Virus record (IMG/VR): IMGVR_UViG_2563366983_000010
Length of the DNA stretch: 33,981 nt
Source of the DNA: a virus
Taxonomy: Duplodnaviria; Heunggongvirae; Uroviricota; Caudoviricetes
Reading direction: 5' to 3' (one strand)
A model generated the notes under the pieces. The model did no database searches. It had not been told where the DNA came from and saw nothing but the letters and a program-made list of their open reading frames with translations. Shown here piece by piece: positions 29,531-33,981 of this stretch. Position 1 is the stretch's first letter, and the number at the start of each line of letters is the position of its first letter. A program made the translations under genes and the position numbers.

Positions 29531-30055
29531 TTAAATACCGGCTTCCTGTTCAAACGGAATAATAGAAAAATCTTCAATGCCTGATTTAACTGTAATTCCG
29601 GCAACACCTGCGACCGCTTTCGGTTCCAGTAAAATCGCTTCCTTGTTGATTTCCTGTTTCGTGCGAATAAAGCGTTGCAGGCCAAGACGCTCCAGTGTTT
29701 CCATCACCGCATCCACACCGCGAATATTTACTGATGGTGGGCGCTGACGCCATGACACATCGCCGGTTACCAGATTTGCCGTCTTCACCTTACCGCCGTT
29801 CGTCAGTTCGTCACGGTTCGCTTCACACCATCCCTGAACGCCTTTTGAAAGGGTTTCAATGCTGGTTTTAAGCGGCGTAATCTGTGAGGCGTATTTCTCA
29901 GTAATTTCAGCGATAGCGTCATTCATTTCCGTTTCAAGTCGTGCCGCTTCGCGTTGCAGGTCACCAATCCGGCGAATATCACACATCACTGCATCGCGGG
30001 ACTGTGGAACATAAGCCGCTGCGGCGTTCTTGATTCGTTTTACTGGTCTAGCCAT
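29531..30055 (-). CDS. gam: Gam host-nuclease inhibitor (Ku-like DNA end-binding protein)
   Basis: 174 aa, near-identical over most of its length to Mu Gam as I recall it (e.g. GWCEANRDELTNGGKVKTANLVTGDVSWR, KEAILLEPKAVAGVAGITVKSGIEDFSIIPFEQEAGI). Confidence 0.9.
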   Translation of the reverse strand: MARPVKRIKNAAAAYVPQSRDAVMCDIRRIGDLQREAARLETEMNDAIAEITEKYASQITPLKTSIETLSKGVQGWCEANRDELTNGGKVKTANLVTGDVSWRQRPPSVNIRGVDAVMETLERLGLQRFIRTKQEINKEAILLEPKAVAGVAGITVKSGIEDFSIIPFEQEAGI

Positions 30056-30923: not shown

Positions 30924-31862
30924 TTACGTGCGCAGCAGGGTTGAAATATCAACGTCCAGGTCTAATTCACGGAAAGCCTGACGCAGATAATTTTCATTAA
31001 CACGATCGCCTTTACCGTAGGCTGTCATGGCCGCAAGGCGCAGCGAGTGATTCAGGATACGAAGCGCACCTGGTTTTTGTGCAATCTGTTGTAATAATTC
31101 CCGCTCGTTTTCGCCGGTAATTTGCCAGGCATCCGCAATGGCTTTTACATCGTCAATTTTGGTTTTATTGATTGCCGTCCGTTTGGCAATACGGGAAAAC
31201 AGGCGGGCAAATTCAACCGTTCTGTTACCACCGGTCATGTTTGAATAAACGCGGTGATTCCCCATCAGAACAAGACCAATACGGGCGGACTCCTGTAACA
31301 GGCGGAGTTCTTCCAGAACCTCAGCGCCAAGATGATCAGCTTCGTCGATAATGACCAGCCCCTGCGTACCTTCAAGACGGCGTCTCAAAGCGCGGGAGAG
31401 TGGCCCCTTACGGCGCGGTGCGTCATTCATTCCCAGTTCATAAGCCAGTTCAGTCAGGCATTCCAGAACACTGGCACAGGATGGGGTAATGGTGATCATC
31501 CAGACATTGTTATTGGTGCGACGAAATTCGCGGGCCGCTTCAGTTTTTCCCACTCCTGGATTACCACAGATAACAGAAATACTTTCAGTCAGGCTGGCAA
31601 AACGCATACTTGTCCAGATTTGGCGGACCGTTCTGGTTTCCACAAAACGCGGGGGTTCTGGCAGTTCTGCGGCGCGGTGATAGTTCTCCAGCCAGCGTTC
31701 AAGAGACTGCGCGACACGTTCATTGTCGCCGTTGTACTTGTCATTCACGAATGCGCTTAACGTTCCTGCGGCCACCCCAGACTCGCGGGCGATTTGTGCA
31801 TAAGTTGTTTTTTCATTTTCTACAAGCGTGCGCAGTCCTGCACGAATATCGGAAATATTCAT
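30924..31862 (-). CDS. B: Transposition ATPase / target DNA activator B (MuB, AAA+)
   Basis: 312 aa; [17 protein letters not shown]-terminus with HTH, Walker A (GNPGVGKTE) and Walker B ([10 protein letters not shown]); closely matches Mu B as recalled. Confidence 0.9.
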
Positions 31863-31899
31863 CTGATAACCTCGTAATTAAATTTTGTTTAAACGTTAA

Positions 31900-33981
31900 T
31901 TAAATGGCTTTTTTACGTCTGTTCTGTTCCAGAATATCCAGTGAATTATTCAGATATTCGTCGCGGTCGCTTTCATATTCATCGTCCGGTTCATCTGCCA
32001 GCACTGGCACGACTTTCTCCACTGGTCTGTAGACGTTGCTGAACAACCCGTTGCCTGTAACAGGAGCTGGCAGTGTTCGGGTATTCTCTGCCTCGGCCAG
32101 TCTGATTTTTTCCTCTCCGCGCTGACGCATCCCTTTGATACGCTGCTGGCGCTGATGGTATTCCGCAGTGACCGGGAATGCCTGCTGTTTATTGCCATCC
32201 CAGACAGCCTCACAGATATAGGAACCGTCCATGCGGCGGATAATTACTTTTGTTGCATCATGAATATCGTAATTCACCAGCACCTTATTACCGTGCTCAT
32301 ATTCCAGGTCAGTTGAATAATAAATATTATTAAACAGCCTGACTTCACAGCGGTTGACTGTACGTTCAATCTGGGGCATAAACATTTCACGCAGTTCAAG
32401 GTCGGACAACCATTCGATTTCCGTCGCTTCTTTTTCCAGTTTGTAGCGTCGGAACTGCGCCGGGGTGTAATGTTCACCGTTTCCACGTAGTGGTAGCGAA
32501 CTATGCGGACGGTTGTTGTACCATTCCACACCAGCTTCAATAGCAGCAATAAGTTCATTCCATGACGGCAGGTTTTTTAAAGCCTGCCGTTGTTTTTCAG
32601 TCAGCTCCCGTCCTTTGTTTGCCGCATTTGTTGCAGATATCAGAGCCTTTGTCGTCCGGCGAACCGTTCCACGGTCGGCACCGGTGCCATAATACGTGGC
32701 AAACTGGCGTGATATGCGCATAGCCAGAGTACGGTTCAGACGCTCTATAATCCCTCGCCCTTGCGGGTTTTCCGGTATACCAAGACGGTGATCAATTCCA
32801 AGACGCGGTAAGACACCCGTAATATCAGCATCGAACGTGTTATTGGTTTCACCGCCGCCATTATCTGAATAATAGATATACGGTTTGCCGTGATTTTTTA
32901 TTCCGTGGCGTAACGCATCAGCAACAGCAACCACACTTTCAGAAAGTGCCAGACTCCAGCCCACAATAAAGCGGCAACTGCCGTCCATGATAAAGGTGAC
33001 TTCTGGGGAAAATGGATTGCCGTGATCAGGATGTGCCACTTTCATCTTCATGCCGTGACCATCACCAATCCAGGCATAATTTACCGGTAAAGATAACCAG
33101 TCCCGACGCACGAAGCCTTCATACTGCCGGAACTCGCTGCCTGTAACGCGCCCACGTTGTTTCACAACAACCGGGAGTTTGTTCATGGCATAGCAAACCT
33201 GATCATACGACGGCAGTGCTGCACACATCGCAGGATTGTCCTGATGCACTTCATACCATTCCGCAGCAAAATCATCATAAGCCTCTCGTATTCCGCACCC
33301 GTTCGGACGGCGGTAAAAGCGAAGAAACTCTGGTAACCAGCGAATCTGGTCTGGTTTTATGGGCTGACGTTTGCCTGGTGCCAGCATGATCAGACGTTCA
33401 GCCGGAGTGGTTGCTTTTTTAAAATCAGCAATCCAGCGTTTCAGTGATATTTCACTAAGGGAGCGCAAAGAACCTTTTTTCGCGTTCGCAGTTGCAACGG
33501 TTTCCACCAGGTGTGCCGGTAACTCACCGTTTTGAGCCTGTTTCACAAACTCACGGATAGCGGCGGCCTGGCTGATTCCTGGTAGTTCACAAACGCGCAA
33601 AACTTCGCTGACAATCGCAATCCGGGCATCCGCTGTTTCTTTTTGCGTAGCGGTTAACGTTCCGAGTTTCTGCTCAAACAGCGCAGGACATTTGCGGTAA
33701 ACCGCAATTTTGCCGTCTTCACGTTTTTTTAAACGCGGAGATTCAGGTTCTTTTGCCTCAGTTGCTGGCTGATTCATTAACGCCTTAATCTGGCGAGCCT
33801 GTAACGCCTTACGCGCCACATCAGGCAAACAGTCGACATGGAACTCAAAAGCCTTTGTCCCTGCACGCTTACGCATCATTCCTTCTGATTCGCCGCAATA
33901 ACGGCGCAATGCTTCCCGAATTCCTTTAATTGTTTTTGGTAATCCTGGTACACCGACCAGCTCTTTGGCGAGAACAAACAT
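31900..33981 (-). CDS. A: DDE transposase A (MuA family), apparently complete
   Basis: 693 aa. N-terminal GLPKT motif as in MuA domain I; WIGDGHG (DDE Asp region); C-terminal DDEYESDRDEYLNNSLDILEQNRRKKAI matches the MuA C-terminal tail. ATG at 33979-33981 is the last codon of the window. Confidence 0.85.
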   Translation of the reverse strand: MFVLAKELVGVPGLPKTIKGIREALRRYCGESEGMMRKRAGTKAFEFHVDCLPDVARKALQARQIKALMNQPATEAKEPESPRLKKREDGKIAVYRKCPALFEQKLGTLTATQKETADARIAIVSEVLRVCELPGISQAAAIREFVKQAQNGELPAHLVETVATANAKKGSLRSLSEISLKRWIADFKKATTPAERLIMLAPGKRQPIKPDQIRWLPEFLRFYRRPNGCGIREAYDDFAAEWYEVHQDNPAMCAALPSYDQVCYAMNKLPVVVKQRGRVTGSEFRQYEGFVRRDWLSLPVNYAWIGDGHGMKMKVAHPDHGNPFSPEVTFIMDGSCRFIVGWSLALSESVVAVADALRHGIKNHGKPYIYYSDNGGGETNNTFDADITGVLPRLGIDHRLGIPENPQGRGIIERLNRTLAMRISRQFATYYGTGADRGTVRRTTKALISATNAANKGRELTEKQRQALKNLPSWNELIAAIEAGVEWYNNRPHSSLPLRGNGEHYTPAQFRRYKLEKEATEIEWLSDLELREMFMPQIERTVNRCEVRLFNNIYYSTDLEYEHGNKVLVNYDIHDATKVIIRRMDGSYICEAVWDGNKQQAFPVTAEYHQRQQRIKGMRQRGEEKIRLAEAENTRTLPAPVTGNGLFSNVYRPVEKVVPVLADEPDDEYESDRDEYLNNSLDILEQNRRKKAI

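Follow-up and report, generated by a model that had tools for sequence, protein, structure and literature searches.

An X-type transposase with a Mu-type C-terminal tail and B gene in a Mu-like prophage of Escherichia coli: a probable exchange of transposition modules

The closest described counterparts of the transposition genes considered here are those of bacteriophages Mu and D108, in which transposase A is built, in order, of an N-terminal winged helix, a helical DNA-binding region, a DDE core, a beta-barrel and a C-terminal tail. In MuA this tail (domain III-beta) contacts MuB and ClpX (PMC3562280, PMC3362531), and Mu follows a rule of TG-CA termini and a 5-bp target duplication (PMC3562280, PMC8705779). 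According to a 2021 survey, TG-CA ends were found in all Mu-like and B3-like phages until then, with duplications of 5 or 6 bp, and TA-TA ends were reported as new in Leptospira (PMC8705779). Here, gene A, the neighbouring gene B and the right end of a Mu-like prophage in the 33,981-nucleotide (nt) stretch IMGVR_UViG_2563366983_000010, hereafter the window, were compared with these systems. The best explanation of the whole, and a very probable one from the sequence relationships, is that an A of another type, here called X-type, and its cognate ends have been joined to a Mu-type B by module exchange.

Mu and D108 themselves are the classical example of exchanged modules in the early region of such phages; their A proteins are 93.7% identical overall, with most of the differences at the N terminus, and the two phages have their ends in common. 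In that case too the exchanged DNA-recognition module includes part of A and the B-interacting end is kept; unlike Mu and D108, the window has the whole A body, except for about 28 residues, and both ends replaced. A described example of a prophage closer to the window in its transposase is the Mu-like prophage Sp18 of E. coli O157 Sakai, which is reported to be intact and whose DNA is packaged (PMC2669165). In Sp18-like prophages of E. coli O157 and other E. coli, which belong to the same branch, the A body is 57-58% identical to window A (57% in the O157 Mu-like prophage), and they have in common with the window family a TTTGATAC site core 18 nt from the termini and 4-bp duplications. The O157-type A differs in its tail, ..NFQRGLQLLEAKLKENDPLA, and in being followed by a B only 47% identical to MuB.

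The transposase and the prophage ends

Gene A (31900..33981, minus strand) encodes a 693-residue DDE transposase assigned, from its open reading frame (ORF) and Pfam matches, to the X-type (Sp18/SuMu-like) branch. It has the same domain order as MuA (NP_050607) and D108 A (YP_003335751), from winged helix to tail, and outside the tail is 24-29% identical to them; global alignment gives 28.6% with MuA (177/618) and 28.1% with D108 A, and BLASTP gives 24% with MuA over the full length (E = 8e-23). The preliminary description of this DNA had judged A to be diverged from MuA except in its tail, and this is borne out, the identity being far from a uniform value of about 90%. The two hallmarks named there, GLPKT (residues 13-17) and WIGDGHG (residues 304-310), are likewise present. 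Its view of A as a diverged MuA has to give way to membership of a separate branch of the family.

In Pfam, A matches Mu-transpos_C at 67.8 bits (cut-off 21.7) and the first part of the HTH_Tnp_Mu_1 model at 29.1 bits, both above cut-off, and reaches 24.9 bits with rve, under the cut-off of 32.6 for that model. MuA, besides HTH_Tnp_Mu_1 and Mu-transpos_C, matches DDE_2 (453 bits) and HTH_Tnp_Mu_2 (163 bits), neither of which was found in A in Pfam even at E <= 1. NCBIfam gave no specific model for A or MuA, only sub-threshold matches to IS481/IS3 cores. The nearest phage transposases by tblastn are those of Tongde (97%), Pseudomonas VW-6B (50%), Haemophilus SuMu (40%) and the D3112 group (30-31%, E ~1e-75), and only residues 552-693 of A align with MuA in the same search (E = 1e-12). 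The SuMu, VW-6B, D3112 and DMS3 transposases, from other hosts, are homologous to A over about 90% of its length, with E values down to 1e-143, and are without the Mu-type tail, the matches stopping at query residue 622-660. More than 1600 homologues of A were found across Enterobacterales in the protein database, those of Serratia and Klebsiella being 76% identical, those of Citrobacter 74% and those of a large E. coli/Salmonella group 58%. Because the MuA-specific Pfam domains are absent and A is closer to the VW-6B, SuMu and D3112 transposases than to MuA, A is, judged by its sequence, a member of a separate and widespread branch of the Mu transposase family with an integrase (rve-like) core, and not a drifted MuA. 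To this branch belong the Sp18-like prophages of E. coli, prophages of Klebsiella and Serratia and, at a greater distance, SuMu and D3112. Of the marks of the Mu family at large, A has a predicted D,D,E triad in an RNase H-like core, a beta-barrel after the core and a setting in a prophage of about 37 kb with Gam, Mor/GemA-type and Mu-type morphogenesis genes; of those of MuA proper, the III-beta tail is present, and DDE_2/HTH_Tnp_Mu_2, MuA-consensus ends and TG...CA termini with a 5-bp duplication are absent.

The individual domains can be followed along the protein. Residues 1-70 (33772..33981, minus strand) form a predicted winged-helix domain resembling MuA I-alpha, the enhancer/operator-binding domain in Mu, on the evidence of Pfam, phmmer and Foldseek: HTH_Tnp_Mu_1 spans residues 6-96, phmmer finds the I-alpha structure 1TNS at E = 9e-4, and the N-terminal part of a structural model (predicted local distance difference test, pLDDT, ~85) superposes on 1TNS with a TM-score of 0.68, a root-mean-square deviation of 2.1 A and 37% identity. 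This model was computed with AlphaFold from an 18-sequence alignment and has a mean pLDDT of 57.6, a predicted TM-score (pTM) of 0.29 and values below 50 in the catalytic core; only its N-terminal domain and the ranking of its Foldseek matches were relied on, whole-chain TM-scores being meaningless. The top matches of this low-confidence model were the MuA transpososome 4FCY (E = 1.7e-7), TnsB and the MuA core 1BCM. The catalytic region (32743..33063, minus strand) contains a candidate triad, D307/D373/E413, proposed from motif positions, conservation and integrase alignment. The triad spacing is 66/40, against 67/56 in MuA, so that it is the second D to E distance (40 vs 56) that sets the two apart. 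All three residues are invariant in 18/18 homologues, down to 58% identity, as are about 200 other positions. A phmmer search of PDB sequences aligned residues 372-425 with retroviral integrase cores (E ~1e-4) and returned only integrase cores and MuA I-alpha; the MuA core was not found, which is taken as distance and not as absence of homology. A beta-barrel domain like MuA II-beta is predicted at residues 532-591 (32209..32388, minus strand) by Mu-transpos_C (E = 8e-19), and the model places beta strands at residues 537-594.

The same allele of A occurs in phage vB_YpM_Tongde (MT591577; 97.4% protein identity to window A), where it is annotated 'hypothetical protein' (QMP18955.1), and in E. 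coli STEC388 (99.7%) and A21 (98.1%), whose RefSeq entries are WP_063269192.1 and WP_201482034.1, respectively. It is rare: by megablast, the window A body was found in 2 of 5426 complete E. coli genomes, and the B-to-gam region had matches in 96 genomes. No literature describing this allele was found, the sole paper naming Tongde being unrelated.

The ends are as distinctive as the protein. The host match stops at window position 1926 and, because the corresponding site of E. coli UTI89 is uninterrupted there (...GGGCCAGCTAACT/GGCCC..., or ...GCTAACT/GGCCC, the slash marking the end of the match), foreign DNA begins at 1927. The right end (attR; 1927..2026) is of X-type, with the terminus 5'-TAAAGCGCGCG, and carries three direct TTTGATAC repeats (1944-1951, 1966-1973 and 2001-2008) lying 18, 40 and 75 nt from the terminus, which make up 3 of the 6 occurrences of this motif in the whole 34-kb window, both strands included. 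The MuA-site consensus YMYNWRAARYRCGAAAR, taken from the D108 RefSeq record, recovers 6/6 Mu sites at <=1 mismatch; it was found neither in the right end at <=3 mismatches nor anywhere in the window at <=1. The repeats and their unlikeness to the Mu consensus had been noticed before and are real, although they had been placed some 30 kb from where they lie. In X-type ends the site core is TTTGATAC, as against ..RCGAAAR in Mu. Measured from the termini, X-type cores lie at 18, 40 and 75 nt on the right and at 18, 124 and 165 nt on the left; Mu has sites beginning at 11 and 33 (right) and at 11, 116 and 156 (left). The spacing of R1-R2 is 22 nt in both, that of L1-L2 106 vs 105 nt and that of L2-L3 41 vs 40 nt, and three sites per end with matching spacing are found in Mu and D108 as well. 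The scaffold of the ends, as read from these positions, is shared with Mu and the putative recognition sequence is replaced. The L1-L2 spacer is itself homologous between Mu (28-80; AAACCGGGAGGACATTGGATTATTCGGGAT..) and the left end of Tongde (~37060-37186; AAACCGGGAGAACATTAGAATAAACGGGAT..), the flanking transposase sites being fully different.

One right end, TAAAGCGCGC(G/A)AAAT(T/C)ATTTGATACC..., is common to 4/4 carriers of the A allele (the window, Tongde, STEC388 and A21) and is also present in O111 strain 12A. The left ends of Tongde, STEC388 and A21 are alike, finishing ...GGTATCAAATAAACTCCTTCTCAATA. This A allele (97-99.7%) always comes with TTTGATAC-type ends, whatever the B lineage or late region (Tongde, STEC388, A21).

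A 4-bp target duplication was present in 5/5 X-type prophages readable at both flanks: TACT in A21, where the K-12 empty site GGTCTACTCAACGG confirms 4 bp, CGCA in STEC388, CGCG in O111:H2 12A, AGCT in O157:H7 Z1825 and CGCA in M1. Flanks were read at window 1922-1930, L015:2290-2310, L005:10010-10035, L017:7360-7375, L004:10170-10190, L018:370-380 and 37565-37580, L019:1015-1025 and 41570-41585, and L020:1020-1030 and 39585-39600, and the window prophage and its relatives occupy six different insertion sites, with three repeats at each end. Right ends start 5'-TA in 7/7 read and left ends start TA or TG; A21 and STEC388, which have the same A allele, show TA at both ends. Shifted termini giving a 5-bp duplication were considered and rejected, as they fit 2/5 insertions by chance and fail in A21, O111 12A and M1, the duplication of A21 being fixed at 4 bp by the K-12 empty site. 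In the window copy only the right end is visible; its duplication is predicted to be AACT and its left junction to read ...CTCAATA/AACTGGCCC. The right terminus of the window, 5'-TA, and the 4-bp duplications of its relatives thus differ from the TG terminus and 5-bp duplication of Mu, which recur, as TG/CA termini and 5 bp, in the MuA-type prophage of strain XJ34. In the searchable literature, with subscription papers outside it, no description was found of a 4-bp duplication in a transposable phage, of these ends or of the junction between the A tail and B.

These insertions bear on the suggestion that A is a non-functional remnant in a decaying hybrid prophage and that its ends are degenerate and not cognate. 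STEC388, the closest relative with a complete genome, does have pseudogenes (among them a frameshifted gam and a lysis gene interrupted by a stop codon), the allele is rare, as its two complete E. coli genomes show, and the left end of the window copy lies outside the window. Decay is nevertheless very improbable, as A is encoded by a full-length ORF and is 97-99.7% identical in four independent hosts or phages, the residues D307, D373 and E413, with about 200 others, do not vary among homologues down to 58% identity, and the ends keep the same sequence and register across independent insertions, each with a clean 4-bp duplication. B, Gam, com and mom are also intact in the window. Tongde, with the same A and ends, was deposited as a complete phage genome from the host Yersinia pestis, with host DNA attached at both ends of the record, which suggests that the Tongde-type combination of A, ends and Mu-type B is functional.

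The C-terminal tail, gene B and the junction between them

The only part of A that matches the DNA of Mu, D108 and SfMu is its last 87 nt (31900-31986, minus strand; 88.5-89.7% identity), which encode residues 666-693 and the stop codon, a Mu-type C-terminal tail, DDEYESDRDEYLNNSLDILEQNRRKKAI. At the protein level 26 of the last 31 residues are identical to those of MuA, the final 16 all so (..LDILEQNRRKKAI), and the similarity starts at D666 (DDEYE...RRKKAI). The nearly identical stretch shared with Mu and D108 is therefore about 28 residues long, and the preliminary description, which was right about the similarity, had given it a length of 35. As in Mu and D108, a spacer of 37-38 nt separates A from the MuB gene directly downstream.

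Gene B (30924..31862, minus strand) encodes a 312-residue MuB-type AAA+ transposition ATPase (Pfam Phage-MuB_C, 110 bits; AAA_22, 75 bits). Its protein is 89.7% identical to B of Mu and D108 (gapless over 312 residues against MuB) and 97-98% identical to B of XJ34 and STEC388. Gene gam (29531..30055, minus strand) encodes a host-nuclease inhibitor of 174 residues (Phage_Mu_Gam, E = 9e-43) that is 90.2% identical to the Gam of Mu and D108. Both are thus orthologues of the Mu lineage, as had been proposed, and 'almost Mu-identical' overstated their closeness. At the nucleotide level B and gam are ~85-88% identical to Mu, and the Mu-like DNA runs from the A tail through B to ~28924.

Two tail types were recognized in the X-type family, the Mu-type (DEYLNxSLDxLE.N.RK..I) and an alternative (..(A/N)FQRG(V/L)(A/Q)LL..). 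The former occurs in 7 lineages, each with a B >= 65% identical to MuB, and the latter in 4 lineages, each with a B 47-59% identical to MuB. The relationships of the A bodies run across this division: A of Edwardsiella has a body 69% identical to that of window A and yet carries the alternative tail and the alternative B, and in a third A body, here called Ec58, compared with that of O157 Z1825, the bodies are 82% identical, the tails unrelated and the B proteins only 47% identical. Since tail type tracks B across A-body relationships in these 11 lineages, which are not phylogenetically independent, the tail goes with the B lineage and not with the A body and is, on this comparison, best read as part of the B module. 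The association is in keeping with the established contacts of MuA III-beta with MuB and ClpX.

Whole phages tell of the same reassortment. In Tongde and A21 a window-type A (97-98%) stands beside Mu-like late genes and a B that shares 99-99.7% identity with MuB; in the window the same A allele occurs with B of a second lineage, and the late genes are related to those of Kp4866-3. The XJ34 prophage is 91-97% nucleotide-identical to the window over 1984-31992, and its B is 97% identical to window B; its A is 92% identical to MuA, its ends are of Mu type on both sides, and its target duplication is 5 bp long (AACGC). Both A classes are therefore found with both B lineages, since XJ34 has MuA with a window-like B, and Tongde and A21 have window A with MuB. 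In XJ34 (NZ_CP098231; L008:6312-7140) an extra 504-nt ORF lies between the Mu-type right end and mom, and a relic of the innermost TTTGATAC repeat is retained beside mom, which suggests that the XJ34 backbone formerly had X-type ends and later gained MuA and Mu ends. The idea, already put forward in the preliminary description, that transposase and ends co-evolved and were combined with a Mu-like B gains support from the co-occurrence of allele and ends and from the contrast with XJ34. The Ec58 body, 58% identical to that of window A, precedes a tail and a B that are both 99-100% identical to those of Mu.

It might be objected that A is a vertical orthologue of MuA that diverged fast, its tail being held by selection for MuB and ClpX contact, with no exchange at all; the weak full-length alignment of A and MuA (24%) would suit this view, as would the conservation of the tail motif as protein in Kp4866-3 and Kp67, where the DNA has diverged. 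Such a history is scarcely credible: phages with A bodies at 25% identity (Tongde, A21 and Ec58 vs Mu) have B proteins at 99-100%, the two A classes are both found with the two B lineages, DNA identity jumps abruptly to 90-100%, and A lacks the MuA-specific Pfam domains and has closer relatives in SuMu and D3112.

The jump can be located. An alignment from the A 3' end through B in seven phages, comprising three A bodies and two B lineages, shows a conserved junction island of ~170 nt (31820..31992, minus strand) that comprises the last ~90 nt of A, including its tail, the 37-nt A-B spacer and the first ~14 codons of B. Identity changes from unalignable to 90-100% within a few nucleotides; the mean pairwise identity is 93-98% in the island, below 70% or unalignable upstream and 74-85% downstream, B settling near 90% further on. 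The island core has 1-5 differences in 127 columns vs 15.5-16.6% divergence in the rest of B, and the binomial P is <= 1.6e-5 in 12/12 pairs between the two B lineages, a jump in identity far beyond chance. The simplest reading of this pattern is that the island is a crossover site for homologous recombination, which repeated exchange would keep uniform. The most diverged part of B between the two lineages is its N-terminal domain (window 31640-31820, residues ~15-75), which directly follows the near-identical island and has 57-85% nucleotide identity vs ~90% for the rest of B.

An unlikely alternative to recombination is that the identity of the island reflects a functional nucleotide element, such as an mRNA structure coupling translation of B to that of the A tail. 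The 181-nt island RNA folds better than its shuffles (z = -2.55, with 3/200 shuffles as good), and a 7-bp helix, in which the DEYL codons of the A tail (GAAUAUC) pair with B codons 5-7 (GAUAUUC; window 31815-31995), would enclose the A stop codon, the spacer, the ribosome site of B and its start codon. This helix, which may couple B translation to A translation, is kept in 7/7 sequences, including the diverged Kp4866-3 and Kp67. Its paired columns, however, never vary, so that there is no covariation (the covariation term is unfavourable, +1.45), and the paired segments encode conserved peptides, which alone could account for their invariance. An Rfam scan of 31600-32200 gave no match, and the remainder of the island in Kp4866-3 is only 43-90% identical, from which the sequence is not strictly required. 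An RNA element could coexist with recombination and would by itself leave the coincidence of the module boundaries with the island unexplained.

The rest of the prophage and its insertion site

Window positions 1-1926 are E. coli chromosome, 100% identical to UTI89, ATCC 11775 and many other strains, and comprise the 5' part of eptB and the hairpin of the eptB-yhjX intergenic region. The insertion (window 1905-1935) splits the stem of this hairpin, GGGCCAGCTAACTGGCCC, which lies between eptB and yhjX and is probably a transcription terminator.

From 1927 to its end, the window consists of a Mu-like prophage in reverse orientation, in the order right end, mom and com, tail and head genes, early region with gam and B, and then A, whose start codon is the last base of the window (33981), so that ner, c and the left end fall outside. 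This gene order agrees with that of the annotated relatives STEC388 and XJ34. In the early operon A is accompanied by the MuB-type AAA+ ATPase and Gam, identified by Pfam; Mu Gp48, Com and Mom were also found.

The com and mom genes (2008..2878, minus strand; Pfam Mom, 256 bits, and Zn_ribbon_Com) are of Mu type and adjoin the right end, and window 2024-2841 is 89.3% identical to Mu at the nucleotide level. In the right-end alignment the Mu-like DNA ends exactly at the mom 3' end. In window 2001-2030 the mom frame runs ~7 codons beyond the position of the mom stop in Mu, and the TAG that closes it overlaps the innermost TTTGATAC repeat at the final base of the repeat.

At the DNA level, likeness to Mu is confined to the B-gam region and com-mom. 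The late (morphogenesis) region, 5900-27700, had no megablast match to Mu and is 66-79% identical to the unverified Klebsiella phage Kp4866-3. On these grounds at least three sources contributed to the prophage mosaic. The tail-fibre region (2880-6130) is also unlike Mu. It encodes a gpK-type assembly protein and a 605-residue protein with a lambdoid domain, 'prophage tail fibre N-terminal', and in parts it shares 87-94% identity with the Stx phage phiSTEC1575-Stx2k and with phiP27. No invertase (gin) gene and no invertible G segment were found in the DNA that separates the fibre genes from com.

Module exchange and its meaning for Mu-like phages

Together, these observations describe two modules. 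The first would consist of the A body, both ends and, beyond the window, ner and c, and the second of the A tail, B and the genes downstream; the two would have been joined, and repeatedly exchanged, by homologous recombination within the ~170-nt island, with a second junction at the mom 3' end. By analogy with MuA, the N-terminal DNA-binding domains of A may recognize TTTGATAC-type sites, spaced like L1-L3 and R1-R2 of Mu, and A would assemble a transpososome on this Mu-like end layout, in which the integrase-like DDE core (D307, D373, E413) would cut and join the ends. Likewise, the ~28-residue tail may couple A to the Mu-type B for stimulation and targeting, and host ClpX may recognize the same tail for disassembly.

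Several points weigh against this account or narrow it. Binding of TTTGATAC by A and of its tail to B and ClpX is postulated by analogy with MuA, and the structural model of A is poor, its catalytic core being unreliable. The association of tail with B comes from 11 lineages with readable B that share ancestry among themselves. Because the tail motif is conserved as protein in Kp4866-3 and Kp67 despite diverged DNA, purifying selection adds to the similarity of the tails beside recombination, and an extra constraint on the island, for example the ribosome site of B or the RNA helix, is possible. With attL, ner and c outside the window, the copy in it may or may not be complete and mobile. The exchange of modules remains, with these qualifications, the preferred explanation.

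A wider reading is tentative, and the balance is slightly against it: the tail would be a portable adaptor that lets deeply different DDE transposases (24-29% identical) use one MuB and ClpX, the island a standing linker by which Mu-like phages of E. coli exchange entire cassettes of a transposase and its two ends, and the strand-transfer geometry different from that of Mu. In that reading the difference in geometry appears as a 4-bp stagger and 5'-TA termini, as against 5 or 6 bp and TG/CA in Mu and B3.

The allele itself was already public through Tongde and RefSeq, and the natural module swap, although clear, is of a familiar kind, phage mosaicism being commonplace; the two-module structure, the island and the termini with their duplication are a modest, incremental advance. 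Its interest lies in the standing of Mu transposition as a reference system for DDE transposases and retroviral integrases, for which these phages are natural domain-swap experiments. One MuB (99-100% identical) and one 28-residue tail are found on three transposase bodies, down to 25% identical and with different ends. The prediction from this is that the tail alone suffices for activation by MuB and remodelling by ClpX, and that recognition of the ends can be fully separated from both. A different geometry of target joining in a close functional relative of MuA is suggested by the 4-bp duplication and the TA termini, and could help to explain what sets the stagger. Lastly, 'Mu-like' prophages annotated as such through B, Gam or mom may carry a transposase and ends that are not those of Mu.

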